IMG/VR virus record: IMGVR_UViG_3300049460_000196
Location: 32,001-96,000 of that record
DNA: 64,000 bases
Strand: one strand, 5' to 3'
From: a virus
The notes beneath the pieces are model-generated. The model was not told where the DNA came from and did not search any database. It saw nothing but the letters and a program-made list of their open reading frames with translations. A program made the translations under genes and the position numbers. Positions within the stretch are counted from its first letter, which is position 1, and each line of letters starts with the position of its first letter. Of this stretch, positions 23,497 to 39,844 are shown piece by piece.

Positions 23497-24144
23497 CTAT
23501 GCAGCCTCACGCTCCAATTCGGCCATAGCCGTCTGGTATTCGTCATCGCTGTAGTAATGATTGCCCAGAACGTCTATCCAAACATTGGTAGTAGCATACT
23601 GATTGTTGTCGCAGAATTGAGCATCGACTTTGAATTGTTCACCATCAACCGAATAGGTTTTCGGTACAGTCACGTTATTGCAATAACGATCGACATGAAG
23701 GAACATTTGAGACAAGCGGGCATGACTTGCGACACGCGCTTTGGTGATGTCGCGAGTGAACTCAGTTACCTTCGCATCAACGGCATAAATGGGCTCCACG
23801 CCTTTATGATAAAACTTGACCAAGTATGCAGTCTTGGCTGGCTCGTAACGGAGTCGAGCATCGCGTCCGAGAACTTTCGTTTGACGAAACATGGTGGACA
23901 CACATTCGATAACCTCTGGTTTGAATCCTTCAGGGCCCACCAGTTTAACGTTCATCAAAAGCTCGCCTTTGTATTGGAGCCCGACCATATTATGACCGTG
24001 GGTATCAAGCAGCTTGCGAACGGCTTTGGCATGATGCTTGGTGCCCGTATATAGCGTCAATAGCGTATTGGGTTTGAACCCACGCTCCATCAATGCTGTA
24101 ACGGCCCGAACTGGATCTGAATCTACAATACGATGCGAAATCAT
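23497..24144 (-). CDS. Hypothetical protein
   Basis: 215 aa ORF. Confidence 0.7.
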   Translation of the reverse strand: MISHRIVDSDPVRAVTALMERGFKPNTLLTLYTGTKHHAKAVRKLLDTHGHNMVGLQYKGELLMNVKLVGPEGFKPEVIECVSTMFRQTKVLGRDARLRYEPAKTAYLVKFYHKGVEPIYAVDAKVTEFTRDITKARVASHARLSQMFLHVDRYCNNVTVPKTYSVDGEQFKVDAQFCDNNQYATTNVWIDVLGNHYYSDDEYQTAMAELEREAA

Positions 24145-24205
24145 GTGCTTCCCCGGTGCGTTAAAAAAAACACACTATACTGTAATTAATACAATGTTCA
24201 AAGCT

Positions 24206-24508
24206 CTACACTACTAAAACATCAATGAAGGCAGTTGGGGTATTGGTGGGTTCAGGAGGAAAGACGGCGGCCCATTGTGCGGCATAGCGCTCAATAGATT
24301 CGCCTAGAATGAATTTATAGCCAACCACACAACCATCACCAGTAAACGCATTCAGCGTCGTGATCAGGAGTTCATTGGTTGGTGTTTCTTCGTAGTCATC
24401 ACTCAATGAATATGAGTCGATGTTGTGTGATTCGAGCCATGACTTTGCTTCCGGGTAATCACCGAACCAGAGTCCGTAAATGGCAATGCCCGTGTATGCA
24501 ACTGTCAT
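24206..24508 (-). CDS. Hypothetical protein
   Basis: 100 aa ORF. Confidence 0.6.
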   Translation of the reverse strand: MTVAYTGIAIYGLWFGDYPEAKSWLESHNIDSYSLSDDYEETPTNELLITTLNAFTGDGCVVGYKFILGESIERYAAQWAAVFPPEPTNTPTAFIDVLVV

Positions 24509-24519
24509 AGTCTTTTATG

Positions 24520-24555
24520 TGGTAGGGAGAGGGGGACTTGAACCCCCACGCCACT
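24520..24555 (-). pseudogene. 3' half of a split tRNA-Leu
   Basis: GGCGT-GGGGG-TTCAAGT-CCCCC-TCTCCCT-A-CCA with no adjacent 5' half. Confidence 0.8.
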
Positions 24556-24557
24556 AT

Positions 24558-24642
24558 TGGTACCCTGAGCCGGAATCGAACCGGCACGCCTCACGGCGCT
24601 TGATTTTGAGTCAAGTGCGTCTACCAGTTCCGCCATCAGGGC
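24558..24642 (-). tRNA. tRNA-Leu(CAA), carried inside the split tRNA
   Basis: Canonical type II cloverleaf, CT CAA AA, CCA. Confidence 0.92.
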
Positions 24643-25091
24643 TCATTCTGTTTATATTGACTGCGTTTCTTACCAGTAAGAGCTTGAGCAATTTTCGCTC
24701 TATGTTCGGGAGATTTTGGCTTCCCTGCATTACCCTTACCAGCTTTACGTGCTTGCTCTACACCTCTACTCTGTGAGGCACATGCAGCTTCGTATCCATT
24801 CTTAGCGACATTCTGTTCCCAAAGCGTCATACCCGTATGGTCTACACGATCAATATAATTGTCTTTGTGCGTACCCCAATACAAATGATTGGGGTTACTG
24901 CATTTTTCATTATTGCAAGCATGACACAACAAAGTTGTGTGAGTTTCGGGTATGGTAGTTCCCAAAGTTGCTGCCAACAATCCGCGAAATTCAACTGATT
25001 TGCCACCACGTTCAACACATGGAAGTTCAAGAGCTAAATGACTACGGCGTTCTTCTCTACTCAGAAGCATATGGTCGATGATATTCATCAT
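24636..25091 (-). CDS. HNH/His-Cys-box-like homing endonuclease with NUMOD3
   Basis: LCHACNNEKCSNPNHLYWGTHKDN; KSPEHRAKIAQALTGKK; CTAAATA just upstream; stop overlaps tRNA 5' end. Confidence 0.85.
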   Translation of the reverse strand: MMNIIDHMLLSREERRSHLALELPCVERGGKSVEFRGLLAATLGTTIPETHTTLLCHACNNEKCSNPNHLYWGTHKDNYIDRVDHTGMTLWEQNVAKNGYEAACASQSRGVEQARKAGKGNAGKPKSPEHRAKIAQALTGKKRSQYKQNEP

Positions 25092-25106
25092 CTATTTAGT
25101 AAACAC

Positions 25107-25139
25107 GGCTGCTGTGTCTACCAATTCCACCATCCCCCA
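25107..25139 (-). pseudogene. 5' half of the split tRNA-Leu
   Basis: GGGGGA-TG-GTGGAATTGGTAGACAC-A-GCAGC; pairs with the acceptor strand at 24524-24530. Confidence 0.8.
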
Positions 25140-25152
25140 TAAGCGTATATTT

Positions 25153-25237
25153 TGGTGCCCAGAGCCGGAATCGAACCGGCACGCCTTGCGGCAGCGGATT
25201 TTGAGTCCGCCAAGTCTACCAGTTTCATCATCTGGGC
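25153..25237 (-). tRNA. tRNA-Leu(CAA)
   Basis: Type II cloverleaf, CCA. Confidence 0.92.
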
Positions 25238-25310
25238 GACAAAATATAAGTTCACGTGCTGCTAGTGCTCCGCATTATACATATCGGAGCCCAGTATGCC
25301 AAATGTTTTT

Positions 25311-25389
25311 TGGTGGATGCGGTGGGCATCGAACCCACAAAGCCCAAGATTTTAAGTCCCGGAGGTATGCCATTTCCCGTCACGCATCC
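25311..25389 (-). tRNA. tRNA-Leu(TAA), short variable region
   Basis: CT TAA AA loop, 6-nt variable region, CCA. Confidence 0.8.
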
Positions 25390-25415
25390 ATGGGATGACG
25401 CACGTCATCCATGTA

Positions 25416-25814
25416 TTACAGATACAGCCTGGTGTTCCAGTCGTTGTACTGGTCACCATCATAGGTGGTATTCCACCTAAACGAACGTTTAACCAGCTTC
25501 TTGTCCCACGTATATTCCACGCGATCAAAACTGTATTCAAACGAACTTACTACCGACTCGCCATCAACCAATACTGCTTGGCCATAGCGAACCTTATTGA
25601 GCATCTGATCAGGCTCAAAGAAAATTGTTCTCACTTCGTTATGCCAATCCGCAGGCACATAAAGGTCAATCAACTTCTGGACATTCTCAAATGTTGCATC
25701 CCATTGTTCAGGTATGCGAATGGTCTCCATGGCCATGTGTGTGCCATTCCAAGCCGCATACCGTATCTCAACGGACGGTTTGATTCTATATTGGGGAAGG
25801 GTTATGGGAAACAT
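25416..25814 (-). CDS. Hypothetical protein, paralog of the next gene
   Basis: ITLP.Y..KPSV and Q...K..Y.QA.L shared with 25822-26235. Confidence 0.7.
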   Translation of the reverse strand: MFPITLPQYRIKPSVEIRYAAWNGTHMAMETIRIPEQWDATFENVQKLIDLYVPADWHNEVRTIFFEPDQMLNKVRYGQAVLVDGESVVSSFEYSFDRVEYTWDKKLVKRSFRWNTTYDGDQYNDWNTRLYL

Positions 25815-25821
25815 CGTCTAT

Positions 25822-26235
25822 TTACCGAACATAGAAATACTTGGCATGATCTTCACCATTTGCACCAGTTCGACGTGAGCGTTTGGTGATCTTACCTGCA
25901 ACTCCCTTATTCATCGCAACATCAACTTGTTCATACGAGTATGACTCAACGTGCATAACCAGATCACCATCGTCGCTCAAATAGGCTTGATCATATTGAA
26001 GCTTGGGAATCAACTGGTCAGAAATGAAGGCCACATACGATACGGTATCATGAAATTGTGGAGGAACATGCTTGTGCATGAATGCTACTGCATTGTCGCG
26101 TGTTGGCGCAAGCTCAACGTCCTCGGACACCAGGATAGCCATGTTGCCACGAGTGTGCGACAAGCCATCGTCATACACCAGAAAAACGCTTGGCTTGTAG
26201 GCATACTTGGGTAAAGTGATCGACAAATCCATCAA
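25822..26235 (-). CDS. Hypothetical protein
   Basis: Paralog of 25416-25814. Confidence 0.7.
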   Translation of the reverse strand: MMDLSITLPKYAYKPSVFLVYDDGLSHTRGNMAILVSEDVELAPTRDNAVAFMHKHVPPQFHDTVSYVAFISDQLIPKLQYDQAYLSDDGDLVMHVESYSYEQVDVAMNKGVAGKITKRSRRTGANGEDHAKYFYVR

Positions 26236-27489: not shown

Positions 27490-27565
27490 TGGTGCTGATG
27501 AAGGGGATCGAACCCTTGACCTCTTCCTTACCGAGAAAGTGCTCTTCCAACTGAGCTACATCAGC
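27490..27565 (-). tRNA. tRNA-Thr(GGT)
   Basis: Cloverleaf, TC GGT AA, CCA. Confidence 0.88.
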
Positions 27566-27596
27566 GTTGAAGGGACGGGAAGAACTCCCGTCCCTT

Positions 27597-28166
27597 TTAG
27601 TTACCTGGCAACAGGCGACTTTTCTTCTGCACACCAGCCAGCAAAAATTCCATCTGGTCAGCCAGGATGTTGCGGTTACGCATGATCAATCCTTCGTTAC
27701 GGTCAGGTACGTATGGTACGTACAAGAGTGGCATTTTTGCTTCTTCAGGAGTACGGTCAGCTTTACGACTGTTGCATGGCTCGCAAGCCGCAACAATGTT
27801 CTGCCATGTGAATGGACCACCACGCGAGTCTGGCATGATGTGTTCCATGCGCAGGTCATCTTTATGGAACTGACCACCGCAGTAAGCACAGGTGTGACGG
27901 TCACGAAGAACCAGAGCATCCTTGCTCAAAGCAATCGACAAGCGGTGACGCTGATCGCTCTTGCCCTTTACTGCGATAATGGTTGGCACTCGCATGGTGG
28001 ACTGGTCACCATCACGATTGTGACCTCCGCGCAGAGTGATCTGCTCATCGCCCATTTCCCAAAGAATCTTACCCAGCGATTGCAGGTAAGCGTAGTGTTC
28101 AATATCTGACCACTGGGTTGGCGTACCATACGCATCCAGTGTCAATATCCGTATCCGATCCAACAT
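27597..28166 (-). CDS. HNH endonuclease (McrA-like)
   Basis: RDRHTCAYCG...EHIMPDSRGG..TWQNIVAACEPCNSRKADRTP. Confidence 0.9.
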   Translation of the reverse strand: MLDRIRILTLDAYGTPTQWSDIEHYAYLQSLGKILWEMGDEQITLRGGHNRDGDQSTMRVPTIIAVKGKSDQRHRLSIALSKDALVLRDRHTCAYCGGQFHKDDLRMEHIMPDSRGGPFTWQNIVAACEPCNSRKADRTPEEAKMPLLYVPYVPDRNEGLIMRNRNILADQMEFLLAGVQKKSRLLPGN

Positions 28167-30312: not shown

Positions 30313-31065
30313 TGGGGGCGGGTGGAGGACTCGAACCTCCGACAACGTCCTTACAAGGGAATTGAGGGTTATGCTGTGACTATCCTGATCAGGATCGTGC
30401 CTTTCGGCTTCTACAGCTAAATAAGGTCGCGAGATTGCAGTCTCCACCTTTCTAACGCTTTCAAGGAGCATCAGCATGGATATTTATCCGCCAACTTTTC
30501 TTTATATAAAACAACACGCAATTACTGGCAAACTTTACTTTGGCAAAACCGCAAAGGACCCAGAAACTTATTTGGGATCAGGCACTTATTGGCGCAAGCA
30601 TATCAAAAAACATGGAACAGAACATGTCATTACTGTGTGGTATTGTTTGTTTTATGACACGACAACAATAAGTGAATTTGCATTATCATTTTCGGCAATG
30701 CACAACATTGTTGAATCTACAGATTGGGCAAATCTTAGGCCTGAAAATGGTCTAGATGGTAACCTTCCTGGAAATGTCCCGTGGAATGTCGGACTAGAAG
30801 CACACAATAAAGGCACAACCAGTCCAAACAAAGGGCGAACTTTGTCAGTTCGTTCTCAAGAACATAAAGACAAAATATCAGCAAGCTTAACTGGTAAAAC
30901 CAAGTCTAGTAAACCTCAACCCAATCGAAAAGCACGGGTACATGTAAAACACGACACCGTAATCTGCCCTCATTGCGGAAAAACTGGCGGAAGTAATATA
31001 ATGGGTAGGTGGCATTTTTCTAATTGTCCAGCTAAGACGTGCTCTACCAACTGAGCTAACCCGCC
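30313..31065 (-). tRNA. tRNA-Thr(TGT) interrupted by a ~680 nt insertion
   Basis: 5' half 31035-31065 (GGCGGGT..CGTCT) and 3' half 30313-30357 (CT TGT AA GGACG..ACCCGCC-C-CCA) are complementary. Confidence 0.8.
30476..31054 (+). CDS. GIY-YIG (Seg-like) homing endonuclease with NUMOD3
   Basis: FLYIKQH..TGKLYFGKT..Y.GSG; RSQEHKDKISASLTGK; CPHCGK; CTAAATA upstream. Confidence 0.88.
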   Translation: MDIYPPTFLYIKQHAITGKLYFGKTAKDPETYLGSGTYWRKHIKKHGTEHVITVWYCLFYDTTTISEFALSFSAMHNIVESTDWANLRPENGLDGNLPGNVPWNVGLEAHNKGTTSPNKGRTLSVRSQEHKDKISASLTGKTKSSKPQPNRKARVHVKHDTVICPHCGKTGGSNIMGRWHFSNCPAKTCSTN

Positions 31066-31911: not shown

Positions 31912-32242
31912 CGATGGTAAGGAAATCTACCACTGGCCGTCGGCCATTAACGAAGCCAAAAATCAGGCTGATGTATTTGAAACCGTTGACCAGTTCGCGG
32001 TTCACGTCGACCGTGCATGGGTAACCAGCAGCACGAAACTTAGCTGCCAAGCGTTTCGCTGGCAACAGCTCGGATTTGTAGGGGTCAATCGTCAGGCGAG
32101 TAAAACCACCTTGCACAATCGACACATCACTTTTGTCGAACGTGTAACCAGCTGTTTGCATGAGTGCGACCATGTTGTTGATCGTCTTCTGTGCTTTTTT
32201 GCTTGGCTGTTTCATCTTCTGCTCCGCTTGTCTGTTTACCAT
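31877..32242 (-). CDS. Hypothetical protein (probable start MKQP)
   Basis: ORF with SD GGAG. Confidence 0.65.
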   Translation of the reverse strand: MVNRQAEQKMKQPSKKAQKTINNMVALMQTAGYTFDKSDVSIVQGGFTRLTIDPYKSELLPAKRLAAKFRAAGYPCTVDVNRELVNGFKYISLIFGFVNGRRPVVDFLTIDELYGTTIFQS

Positions 32243-32295: not shown

Positions 32296-32374
32296 TGGTA
32301 GCTGTGGTCGGCCTCGAACCGACAGAACCCTTTGTTTTGAGCAAAGGAGGTATTCCAATTCCCTTCACACAGCC
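32296..32374 (-). tRNA. tRNA-Leu(CAA), short variable region
   Basis: CT CAA AA, CCA. Confidence 0.8.
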
Positions 32375-32756: not shown

Positions 32757-32834
32757 TGGTGGATATGGGGAGACTCGAACTCCCACACGACGGTCTCTGA
32801 AACCGCCAGGTATACCAATTCCCTTCACATATCC
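32757..32834 (-). tRNA. tRNA-Leu(CAG), short variable region
   Basis: TT CAG AG, CCA. Confidence 0.8.
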
Positions 32835-35141: not shown

Positions 35142-35217
35142 TGGGGTGAAGGATGGGGATCGAACCCACGACGACCGGAATCACAATCCGGGACTCTACC
35201 ACTGAGCTACCTACACC
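35142..35217 (-). tRNA. tRNA-His(GTG)
   Basis: G-1, C73, CCA. Confidence 0.92.
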
Positions 35218-35227
35218 ATTGAAACTG

Positions 35228-35896
35228 TTACGGAAACTTCATCTTTCGACCAAGCTTCCAATTTCGAGAAAGCCACAAATCAATGTCTTCTCGATTTATC
35301 TTTATCGTGCGCTTTTCTATTTCAGAAAATATCCACATAGTGCCATACTGCGAGTTACCAGTACCGCGTGCGCTTTTTGATACGTTATCTCCAATTTTCT
35401 TCTTGGTTTCTTCGGTATGATTTTTACCTTTAAAACTGGGAGGCGGCGTGCCTGGTAAATTGGCTATGCCTGCTGATGATCTATTGGTTTTTGTTTGTTT
35501 TGCCCATTCGGGGTCATTATCTCTCAACCATTGCTGCCTTTGTTGACTGATCTTATTCTTGGCAGTTTGACGACATGAATCGGCATTAATGATATTGTTA
35601 GGCCAACTGCTACCACCTAAAGATATGTTCATACACATCGGATCAGTTAGCATTTCGGCACACACCAATTCTGCTTCGCGTTCTCTCAACCACTCCCTAC
35701 TGAAGTAATGCTCGAGAATCGCACATACGTGATTTTCCTTACCGTGAACATTAACTGATCGCCCAAGCAGTTTGCCAGAACCAATATAACCGTCATTCAG
35801 GTCATAAGTGCTGTGCATACCCAAGTAATATTTTCCAGTCACAATGCACGTGGTGCGATATATGTAATGATACTGTCTGTTGGTCATATCCGCCAT
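35228..35896 (-). CDS. GIY-YIG (Seg-like) homing endonuclease with NUMOD3
   Basis: HYIYRTTC.VTGKYYLGMHST...YIGSG; FKGKNHTEETKKKI. Confidence 0.9.
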   Translation of the reverse strand: MADMTNRQYHYIYRTTCIVTGKYYLGMHSTYDLNDGYIGSGKLLGRSVNVHGKENHVCAILEHYFSREWLREREAELVCAEMLTDPMCMNISLGGSSWPNNIINADSCRQTAKNKISQQRQQWLRDNDPEWAKQTKTNRSSAGIANLPGTPPPSFKGKNHTEETKKKIGDNVSKSARGTGNSQYGTMWIFSEIEKRTIKINREDIDLWLSRNWKLGRKMKFP

Positions 35897-35933
35897 TGTA
35901 TATGACCATTGATATGGTGCAATAAAGTATTAA

Positions 35934-36007
35934 GGGGTGGCCACCGAGAATTGAACTCGAGTAAACGGGATCACAACCCGCGTCATTAACCACTATGATA
36001 TGGCCAC
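35934..36007 (-). tRNA. tRNA-His(GTG), second copy lacking G-1 and full CCA
   Basis: Cloverleaf, TT GTG AT. Confidence 0.8.
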
Positions 36008-37850: not shown

Positions 37851-37890
37851 TGGTATCTAGTACTGGTCTCGAACCAGTGACCTCATCGAT
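37851..37890 (-). pseudogene. 3' half (nt 37-76) of a split tRNA, probably Val(GAC)
   Basis: AT-CGATG-AGGTC-T arm-ACTAGAT-A-CCA. Confidence 0.85.
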
Positions 37891-38148
37891 TTAATCGATT
37901 GTACCGTTGACTTTTATTTGTACAAGATCGCTAAACATTTTAGAGATCCCACTCAACTCATTCAAATAATCTTCCGTCAACTTATCGTCTTCGGTTAATT
38001 CAACTTTTAAATTAAGTTCAGCTCTTTGTTCTTGTACTTGTTTGTGAATAAGTGCAGTGGCCACTTGCAATGTGTCGATTGGTAAACTACTCGCCAACAT
38101 AGCTACTGCATTCCGAAGTGCCAATATTTGTACTTGAGTTGATGACAT
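37891..38148 (-). CDS. Hypothetical protein (cassette cargo)
   Basis: 85 aa, SD AAGGAG; stop lies exactly at the insertion junction. Confidence 0.7.
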   Translation of the reverse strand: MSSTQVQILALRNAVAMLASSLPIDTLQVATALIHKQVQEQRAELNLKVELTEDDKLTEDYLNELSGISKMFSDLVQIKVNGTID

Positions 38149-38207
38149 ATGATTCTCCTTTAGAACAAACAGGATGCACATGTTTTTGTCATACCGCAAT
38201 ATTATTC

Positions 38208-38282
38208 TGGTACTCACGGAAGGAATTGAACCTTCGACCCTCTCCACGTCAAGGAGGCATTCTACCACTGAACTACGTGAGC
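38208..38282 (-). tRNA. tRNA-Val(GAC), carried in the cassette
   Basis: TT GAC GT loop, CCA. Confidence 0.88.
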
Positions 38283-38283
38283 A

Positions 38284-38637
38284 TTATCTTTTCTTGTTAC
38301 CCCAGGTAGGGGTCTGTCTGTGGCAGTTTGGACACAGAAATCTCAAATTATCTGGATGATTGTTGGTCTTTACCCCATCCATATGGTCGATATCCAAACT
38401 AAGTGGTTTACCGCACCAGTCACTTACTGCACAACATGAACAGGCATAACCGTCGCGTTCCGTTAAGAACTTGATCATCGCCGGGCTATTATAATGAACA
38501 GCACCTTGCAATATTTTCGGTTTGGTAACCGATATCCAGGTAAATGCGTGTTGGCATTTGTTCGAGCAGTATTTGCCATTAAATGCTGGCGGTTTATACT
38601 TTGTTGGTTTACCACAATTGATACATGATCTTTCCAT
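38284..38637 (-). CDS. HNH endonuclease
   Basis: CINCG..YCSNKC; LDIDHMDGVKTNNHPDNLRFLCPNCH; TATAAATA upstream. Confidence 0.9.
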   Translation of the reverse strand: MERSCINCGKPTKYKPPAFNGKYCSNKCQHAFTWISVTKPKILQGAVHYNSPAMIKFLTERDGYACSCCAVSDWCGKPLSLDIDHMDGVKTNNHPDNLRFLCPNCHRQTPTWGNKKR

Positions 38638-38675
38638 ATAAGCACCTTTTCAGGTATTTATAAGAGCGATCTGGT

Positions 38676-38710
38676 TCAACGATGTGCTCTACCAACTGAG
38701 CTAACTAGAT
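38676..38710 (-). pseudogene. 5' half (nt 1-35) of the split tRNA
   Basis: ATCTAGT-TA-D arm-CATCG-TT-GA; pairs with the 3' half at 37851. Confidence 0.85.
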
Positions 38711-39766: not shown

Positions 39767-39844
39767 TGGTGGTGTTGGGCGGCCTCGAACCGCCAAGCAA
39801 CAGGATCTCGACCTGTTAGGTATACCAATTCCCTTCACAACACC
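39767..39844 (-). tRNA. tRNA-Leu(GAG), short variable region
   Basis: TC GAG AT loop, CCA. Confidence 0.75.

Follow-up and report, generated by a model that had tools for sequence, protein, structure and literature searches.

In a 64,000-nucleotide (nt) stretch of viral DNA (IMG/VR record IMGVR_UViG_3300049460_000196, positions 32,001 to 96,000; hereafter the window) we have found, on the minus strand at 24520-25139, what is probably a free-standing homing-endonuclease cassette lodged inside the transfer RNA (tRNA) gene that it targets. The cassette, of ~550 base pairs (bp), consists of a leader, the gene of a homing-type endonuclease and a whole tRNA-Leu gene, and it would have replaced the anticodon arm and most of the variable arm of a resident tRNA-Leu gene of a tRNA array, leaving the D-arm and T-arm halves of this gene as its flanks. 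We favor an element that is SegB-like in action, nested in its target and provided with a spare tRNA in place of an intron, and for this joint explanation we estimate a probability of about 77%. The 113-kb IMG/VR record from which the window comes belongs to a giant uncultured phage and was judged 27% complete. The features of the locus, in window coordinates and in the reading direction of the minus strand, are as follows.

25274..25302, minus strand: sigma-70-like promoter (TTGGCA, 17 nt, TATAAT; 11/12 matches), a consensus match only, upstream of the two-tRNA unit that now holds the cassette
25153..25237, minus strand: resident intact tRNA-Leu(CAA) number 1 (ARAGORN; Rfam 48.8 bits), 13 nt upstream of the broken gene
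25113..25139, minus strand: 5' fragment of the broken tRNA-Leu (27 nt), comprising acceptor TGGGGGA, TG (positions 8-9), D arm GTGGAATTGGTAGACAC and A26
25107..25112, minus strand: GCAGCC, which is what remains of the old anticodon stem's 5' strand together with position 32, or else the start of the cassette; the left junction falls within it
25092..25106, minus strand: cassette leader GTGTTTACTAAATAG (GTGTTTA-CTAAATA-G), 15 nt, ending in CTAAATAG, with the conserved leader motif of the family
24636..25091, minus strand: endonuclease open reading frame (ORF) of 151 amino acids (aa), with a predicted His-Me finger core, a His-Cys box motif like that of I-PpoI and, at the C terminus, a NUMOD3-like tail
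24558..24642, minus strand: carried intact tRNA-Leu(CAA), class II, with A73 and encoded CCA (ARAGORN; Rfam tRNA 57.1 bits versus a cut-off of 29)
24553..24557, minus strand: spacer ATAGT, read from the sequence, which separates the carried tRNA from the 3' fragment; right junction
24520..24552, minus strand: 3' fragment of the broken tRNA-Leu (33 nt), comprising the end of the variable arm (5 nt, GGCGT), the T arm (GGGGG-TTCAAGT-CCCCC), the 3' acceptor strand TCTCCCT, A73 and CCA

A preliminary description of this region had given the order as 5' half, CTAAATA, endonuclease, intact tRNA-Leu(CAA) and 3' half, and this was borne out, with exact coordinates, on the minus strand. The assignment of GCAGCC comes from a comparison of leaders across loci, as the cassette of the relatives begins immediately past position 26. 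The carried tRNA has a predicted cloverleaf with a long variable arm, A73 and a Leu anticodon, all as expected of a tRNA-Leu, and it is 81% identical to the upstream resident tRNA-Leu(CAA) number 1. The stop codon of the ORF (TGA, 24638-24636) lies inside the carried tRNA, so that both genes overlap by 7 nt, again as had been described. The ORF is outside any self-splicing intron or intein and stands as a separate gene between tRNA sequences.

Pairing and sequence comparison show that the two flanks are the halves of one predicted Leu-type tRNA. Acceptor positions 2-7 of the 5' fragment pair with positions 66-71 of the 3' fragment (24524-24530), giving 6/7 pairs; according to our own arithmetic, at least 6/7 pairs at a position fixed by the T arm and the CCA end would arise by chance with a probability of ~0.013. 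An unrelated phage (locus L024) has an intact tRNA-Leu(CAA) with which the first 25 nt of the 5' fragment agree exactly; its acceptor is GGGGGGA/TCTCCCC, and the acceptor and body of this tRNA fit the 3' piece at 29/32 and 27/33 positions. The 3' fragment retains a perfect T arm. The preliminary description had taken an origin of the two halves in different genes as grounds to abandon its reading; in fact, the halves pair here and at no fewer than six other loci, and they covary between loci. It had also stated that the anticodon region of the broken gene is lost, and the flanks indeed lack an anticodon arm and most of a variable arm, which is the standard junction pattern of the family as well. 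Because no anticodon arm and almost no variable arm are left, neither splicing nor ligation could restore a tRNA from these pieces. Two other readings of the junctions were considered and rejected. One was a 5'-end patch, whereby the cassette would provide nothing but a new 5' part for a chimeric downstream tRNA; in this nuclease family, however, the 5' fragments do not pair with the 3' acceptor strand of the carried tRNA (2-5/7 positions) and do pair with a separate downstream fragment. The other was an insertion into the variable loop of an arm-less tRNA body, as GCCGTG...GGCGT could be taken to indicate, and here the GTG is part of the conserved cassette leader. As a separate observation, L024 contains at 2130-2250, past a tRNA-Met gene, two T-arm-like motifs with matching ends (CTCTTGTT ... 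AACAAGAG) and no ARAGORN call, which may be an interrupted or composite tRNA-like gene.

The window ORF is called here a predicted His-Me-finger nuclease of the HNH kind, with an I-PpoI-like box and a NUMOD3-type tail, in agreement with the preliminary description, which had called it His-Cys/HNH with NUMOD3 and was right in kind (the Pfam matches, which are discussed below, fall under their cut-offs). Its motif CHACNNEKCSNPNHLYWGT aligns to the His-Cys box of I-PpoI, as does the invariant family motif CHACNNEKCSNP-HLYWGT, and the His, Cys and Asn positions align residue for residue with I-PpoI over about 27-31 aa, a weak match (E 0.04-0.5 versus the PDB). PHROG families of HNH endonucleases are matched at 2e-9, 1e-8 and 2e-6, which places the protein in the HNH/His-Me finger superfamily. 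In an AlphaFold2 model with a predicted local distance difference test score (pLDDT) of 79, I-PpoI was the top match of both fold searches, weakly in each case (Foldseek E 0.27; VIA Z 3.6 over 63 residues), and seven further rows of the VIA top ten were HNH-type nucleases. No GIY-YIG catalytic domain appears among the Pfam and PHROG matches of the ORF, which are only of His-Me/HNH type, and it is consequently not a member of the SegB/Seg family. The ORF is intact and retains all the residues that are invariant in the family, which comprises ~200 clusters at 50% identity (E up to 1e-30) and whose genes are under purifying selection, with a ratio of non-synonymous to synonymous substitution rates (dN/dS) of 0.07-0.15 in four pairs. 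An assignment of the window nuclease to the clade that carries TAA/CAA tRNAs was dropped, given that the tree was unresolved and the window protein sits on a long branch.

The nuclease family is closely tied to tRNA-Leu. A first IMG/VR search returned 22 loci with 44-53% protein identity, in 20 of which tRNA-Leu is the next gene. A second IMG/VR sample, obtained by profile search, contained 80 loci with homologous nucleases, 53 of them distinct, and tRNA-Leu directly follows the nuclease in 62/80 loci and in 40/53 distinct ones, with anticodon UAA in 23, UAG in 16 and CAA in one of these 40; by comparison, Leu genes account for only ~16% of the tRNAs of the window's record. Among the rest of the distinct loci another tRNA is next in seven and there is no tRNA in six. 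The ORF stop is within the tRNA in 30/53 distinct loci, and a Leu-type 5' fragment is found upstream in 20/53; a pairing 3' fragment is present downstream in the window and in L004, L012, L017, L018, L067, L079 and L081. Where both pieces exist, the 5' piece ends just past the D stem and the 3' piece begins at or just before the T arm, and this uniformity of the junctions indicates that the loss of the anticodon region is the rule and not an accident. The members of the family span all stages, from both halves kept to none. These figures bear out the recurring strategy that had been suggested from the window, whereas the term split-and-replace applied to it stands in part: the cassette does sit inside a broken tRNA-Leu, and a like-for-like replacement is not shown here. 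In cultured phages only three homologues were found, none with an adjacent tRNA-Leu, and the nested Leu layout was seen in no cultured phage. Other tRNAs are fused or adjacent to nucleases of the family at L100 (the same site as L006), L075, L110, L143, L131 and L135, namely Arg(UCG), Trp, Gln, Asn, Glu and Arg(UCU), often with the stop inside the tRNA; the family has therefore changed its tRNA partner several times.

The signs of mobility come from other phages. Loci L017 and L018, compared over 6.4 kb, have a sole common stretch of 734 nt in which the ORF is 100% identical; their flanks are unrelated, and the junctions of the cassette fall at equivalent tRNA positions. The mismatches within this stretch are located in the tRNA halves and are compensatory (GCCCTGG/CTAGGGC versus GCCCAGA/TCTGGGC), and the intact resident genes corresponding to both loci, found by exact searches with the 5' fragments in other contigs, are tRNA-Leu(UAG), that is, with the anticodon of the carried tRNA. 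In L043, L050 and L060, which keep the tRNA order of L012/L017 (Cys/Gly, Leu(UAG), Ala, Pro, Val, Trp), the site is occupied by one intact tRNA-Leu(UAG) with no trace of nuclease or carried tRNA. Presence and absence at a fixed site and horizontal spread were thus found for the family (L017/L018; L043/L050/L060) and show, as judged from sequence comparison, that it is mobile among phages. The preliminary description had taken the presence of the carried tRNA in relatives with an empty site as a second ground against its reading, and this tRNA is missing from them where this could be checked, in L043/L050/L060, which are other phages than that of the window. L012 and L017 have identical flanks, cassettes that are 79% identical and different right junctions; therefore, one site was hit, or the cassette was exchanged, more than once. 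In addition, the T arm of L017 is a mosaic whose 5' strand is of the L018-type donor, whose loop is common and whose 3' strand is of the resident type, exactly what recombination in the T loop would leave. In L067 two stacked 3' remnants (...CAGCCGCACCA, then ...CCTGGGGCACCA) are found 90 nt past the carried tRNA, the first of which matches the 3' end of the tRNA of an L005-type cassette; this suggests that a cassette inserted into the tRNA brought by a previous one.

With these data the core of the reading of the preliminary description is supported and its observation is confirmed, and a mechanism can be proposed. In co-infecting phages, the nuclease would cut intact tRNA-Leu genes within their central part, which is missing from the occupied allele. 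The break would then be repaired from the occupied allele, with the conserved D-arm and T-arm halves acting as short homology arms, and the nuclease gene and the tRNA would be copied together. The carried tRNA, presumably uncut, would offset the destroyed gene and would in this way take the role that self-splicing has for intron-borne endonucleases.

The closest known system is SegB of phages T4 and T6, a free-standing GIY-YIG homing endonuclease located in a tRNA cluster, which recognizes tRNA-gene DNA through a T-arm motif and drives the inheritance of itself and of neighboring tRNA genes (PMC2330249; PMC13096335). Like the cassette, segB is a non-intron nuclease gene among phage tRNA genes, with a tRNA directly after it, and both proteins have a NUMOD3-type DNA-binding tail. 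They are also alike at the end of the gene, as segB is cut between its last codon and its stop codon by tRNA maturation and the stop of the cassette gene is inside the tRNA. They differ in the catalytic domain, GIY-YIG in SegB and a predicted His-Me finger in the cassette nuclease. Moreover, the cassette is housed within the broken gene that it presumably targets and brings along a complete spare tRNA for the same amino acid, and its transfer seems to be independent of synteny outside the tRNA gene (L017 versus L018); its activity is predicted.

Other systems share single aspects with the cassette. The HNH nicking enzymes F-TflI, F-TflII and F-TflIV of T5 are encoded in the tRNA gene region, and it has been suggested that processing of the transcript controls them (PMC2330249). 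They are, like the cassette gene, HNH-type nuclease genes embedded in a phage tRNA cluster; neither split-tRNA nesting nor a replacement tRNA is described for T5 in the searchable papers. I-PpoI itself, with which the cassette nuclease has its best, albeit weak, match in sequence (E 0.04-0.5) and fold (Z 3.6), located at the catalytic beta-beta-alpha-metal core, is a dimer from a group I intron of nuclear ribosomal DNA, in contrast to a 150-aa phage protein with a NUMOD3 tail. The intron-borne endonucleases of T4 differ from the cassette in that the latter has no intron and the interrupted gene is not restored by splicing. Integrase islands and prophages that target tRNA genes bring a duplicate of the 3' end that they displace, so that tRNA function is kept, as it presumably is with the cassette; the cassette has neither an integrase nor attachment (att) repeats, and it brings a whole separate tRNA and leaves the old gene broken without its middle. 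Mobile endonuclease ORFs of fungal mitochondria (for example in Allomyces atp6) insert at the end of a gene and bring a substitute coding end, which also offsets the damage without splicing; they do so in protein-coding genes and replace the displaced part only, whereas here an RNA gene would be replaced whole.

The leader motif is conserved in most loci and resembles a T4-type late promoter, and most leaders of the family can form a hairpin that pairs the Shine-Dalgarno sequence, with TATAAATA or CTAAATA at its tip. This is similar to the T4 endonuclease genes, in which a hairpin over the ribosome-binding site has a late promoter inside (PMC2330249), as in I-TevI, I-TevII, I-TevIII and MobE. 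The window leader differs from them in lacking the 3' strand of the hairpin and in pairing with the D arm of the tRNA fragment. This pairing comprises 11 bp between the D arm of the 5' fragment (UUGGUAGACAC) and the leader (GUGUUUACUAA) at 25096-25124 on the minus strand, and the same 90-nt fold (z -3.2) also has codons 3-7 of the ORF paired to the acceptor strand; it could conceal the start region of read-through transcripts or simply be due to chance. At the other end of the gene, maturation of the carried tRNA by RNase P would leave a messenger RNA (mRNA) without a stop codon, because this codon is inside the tRNA, and the nuclease level would then be low. Something similar is known for segB of T4, where tRNA-Arg maturation cuts between the last codon and the stop codon and has been proposed to act as a brake on expression (PMC2330249).

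Several points weigh against the interpretation of the window as a homing cassette of this kind. Its leader is truncated, since the ATG follows directly after CTAAATAG, and both a Shine-Dalgarno sequence and a local hairpin are absent from it. CTAAATA was considered as a promoter of this phage and rejected, as it occurs at 17 sites on both strands of the 113-kb record versus ~27 expected at even base composition according to our own estimate, without any enrichment. This copy of the cassette may be poorly expressed or a fossil. The pair 1:72 of the broken gene is a U-U mismatch. All the Pfam matches of the nuclease are under the cut-offs (PF05551 with 19.4 bits versus 27; HNH_3 with 14.4 versus 24.8; NUMOD3), and the matches of the predicted fold are weak, with a best Z of 3.6. 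The homologies implied for the crossovers by L017/L018 are very short, ~7-10 nt, and it should be kept in mind that we infer cleavage and homing by the cassette family. Likewise, we infer an insertion at the window's own site from its anatomy and from the other phages, and the collections searched contained no relative of the window's phage: the downstream 100-aa protein retrieved none from IMG/VR and only itself from a set of 5.8 billion proteins, neither a 30-nt pattern from the 5' fragment nor a profile of two upstream paralogous proteins retrieved any from metagenome contigs, and BLAST of the region against cultured phages gave scattered tRNA matches only. Compensation by the carried tRNA can only be presumed here, as the anticodon of the broken gene is lost and the record lacks a tRNA-Leu(UAG). 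Finally, the carried tRNA is closest (81%) to the neighboring resident tRNA-Leu(CAA) and not to the tRNAs of other cassettes, and a local origin or gene conversion could be behind this.

These points lead to the alternatives. A homing-type insertion could have made the layout and the cassette of the window could since have ceased to move or to be expressed, being now on its way to an ordinary nuclease gene next to a tRNA; the truncated leader without ribosome-binding site or local hairpin, the unenriched CTAAATA and the U-U mismatch all fit this, as do the long branch of the window protein and the existence in the family of every stage from both halves to none. We consider it unlikely, although worth serious attention, as the ORF is intact with all its invariant family residues, the 3' fragment keeps a perfect T arm and the cassette is within a transcribed tRNA unit downstream of a strong promoter-like site. 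It is also conceivable that the nuclease serves mainly in conflict and not its own spread, excluding rival phages or shutting off the host by cutting their tRNA-Leu genes while the linked, uncuttable tRNA sustains translation, and that the nesting is a by-product. The tight link of the nuclease to a tRNA of the same amino-acid type would agree with this, and nucleases of the SegB type do affect competition and defense evasion (PMC2330249; PMC13096335). However, an identical cassette in unrelated phages together with empty sites shows that the cassette itself moves, and there is no sign here of activity on host DNA, all of which makes this explanation improbable.

Scrambling of the array by duplication, deletion or illegitimate recombination, with no participation of the nuclease, might have left tRNA pieces around a nuclease gene and a tRNA, and both the mosaic nature of phage tRNA arrays and the 81% likeness of the carried tRNA to its neighbor go in this direction; but the order and the positions of the tRNA junctions recur across independent loci, identical cassettes are found within unrelated flanks and the acceptor halves covary, and we regard scrambling as very improbable. 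No more credit can be given to an interrupted gene that was not a tRNA and encoded instead a tRNA-like small RNA (a Y-RNA-like tRNA mimic with a CAGCA(A) module), in which case no decoding would have been lost. It is true that the 5' fragment reads ...GACACAGCAGCC, which contains ACAGCAG, but there is no handle helix of 7-8 bp before the motif and no partner strand, the CAC is part of the D stem, the GTG past GCAGCC belongs to the conserved cassette leader, and the targets of the family in other phages are ordinary tRNA-Leu genes. The junction of the 5' fragment (CACAGCAGCC, 25107-25116, minus strand) does resemble the (Y)RCAGCA(A) module of the Y-RNA-like small RNAs of this phage, which is probably a coincidence. 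The tRNA-Leu genes of cyanobacteria are hosts of group I introns, and by this precedent the locus might be a gene split at the RNA level, from which the insert is removed or whose halves are joined to give a working tRNA. For the Leu case this is effectively refuted, and we give it almost no credence: both halves lack the anticodon arm and most of the variable arm, relatives such as L012 and L017 have decaying 3' fragments, and no intron family of Rfam, group I models included, matches 24000-26000 or 20000-42000 at E up to 5. A group I intron in the tRNA-Leu was rejected on the same grounds, the lack of an Rfam intron match and of the anticodon arm and most of the variable arm in the flanks.

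Homing endonucleases have been thought, to our knowledge, to persist in essential genes only by means of introns or inteins or by residing beside their target. The homing-cassette reading of the present layout represents a third solution, in which the target is broken outright and a working copy is brought along, and we found no description of it in the open-access literature on SegB, T5 and homing endonucleases. We propose tentatively, with somewhat less than even confidence, that the nested form is a self-contained RNA-gene drive that uses tRNA halves as portable homology arms and jumps between the tRNA-Leu genes of unrelated phages without synteny, that each jump overwrites a resident tRNA with that of the cassette, which may read another codon, that this is a main engine of tRNA repertoire turnover in phages, and that ordinary nuclease-tRNA pairs are often its decayed end state. 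Jumps without synteny would be feasible because the D and T arms are conserved in every tRNA-Leu, and repeated rounds of jumping are suggested by the two stacked 3' remnants of L067. If the mechanism proposed above is right, it would explain the crowding of nuclease genes in phage tRNA clusters and would provide a route by which tRNA genes pass between unrelated phages and the decoding capacity of phages is rewritten, as well as a source of natural compact nucleases (~150 aa) with specificity for tRNA genes. For annotation it would mean that half-tRNAs beside nuclease genes are insertion scars and not sequencing noise.

The cassette belongs to a large array. The window has 51 tRNA genes and a transfer-messenger RNA (tmRNA)-like gene, all on the minus strand (ARAGORN), and the whole 113-kb record has 55 tRNA genes, with Leu making up ~16% of the tRNAs; its Leu anticodons are UAA (two genes), CAA (three), CAG (two) and GAG (two), UAG being the sole Leu anticodon that is absent. 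There are also tRNA-Leu genes of 77-79 nt with a short variable region and a Leu-type D arm at 25311-25389, 32296-32374, 32757-32834 and 39767-39844 of the window and at 2716-2792 of L043. They are unusual for the bacterial type, and one of them scores higher in the Rfam tRNA-Sec model than in the tRNA model.

The window contains other arrangements of nucleases and tRNAs. The most similar to the Leu case involves a tRNA-Val gene at 37851-38710 on the minus strand, with a 5' half at 38710-38676 (ATCTAGT ... CATCG TTGA), TATAAATA at 38662-38655, an HNH ORF at 38637-38284, a tRNA-Val(GAC) at 38282-38208, an 86-aa ORF and a 3' half at 37890-37851. The halves pair at 7/7 positions in the acceptor and 5/5 in the anticodon stem, the break being in the anticodon loop. 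The Leu case had been described as having the same order, which is correct for the nested layout and not for the motif, as the Val case carries TATAAATA and not CTAAATA. Relatives of the Val-case HNH nuclease also precede tRNAs (Val, Asp, Leu, Phe) and are accompanied by 5' fragments, and in two of them (L027 and L033) the 5' tRNA fragments are followed by a TAAATA motif.

At 35142-36007 on the minus strand a 222-aa ORF (35896-35228) is located between two complete and dissimilar tRNA-His(GTG) genes; it is a SegE-like GIY-YIG protein with NUMOD3 that matches phrog_314 (homing endonuclease) at 2e-30, and this arrangement may represent the same strategy in a non-nested or fully resolved form. 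Also on the minus strand, at 27490-28166, the ORF of an HNH_5 endonuclease (28166-27597; Pfam 4e-16) precedes first a GC-rich hairpin and then a tRNA-Thr(GGU), with no tRNA halves visible. Finally, a tRNA-Thr-like gene at 30320-31060 is split by ~650 nt, and the insert contains a CACAGCA module and, on the opposite (plus) strand, a 192-aa ORF (30476-31054) in which there is a NUMOD3 motif.

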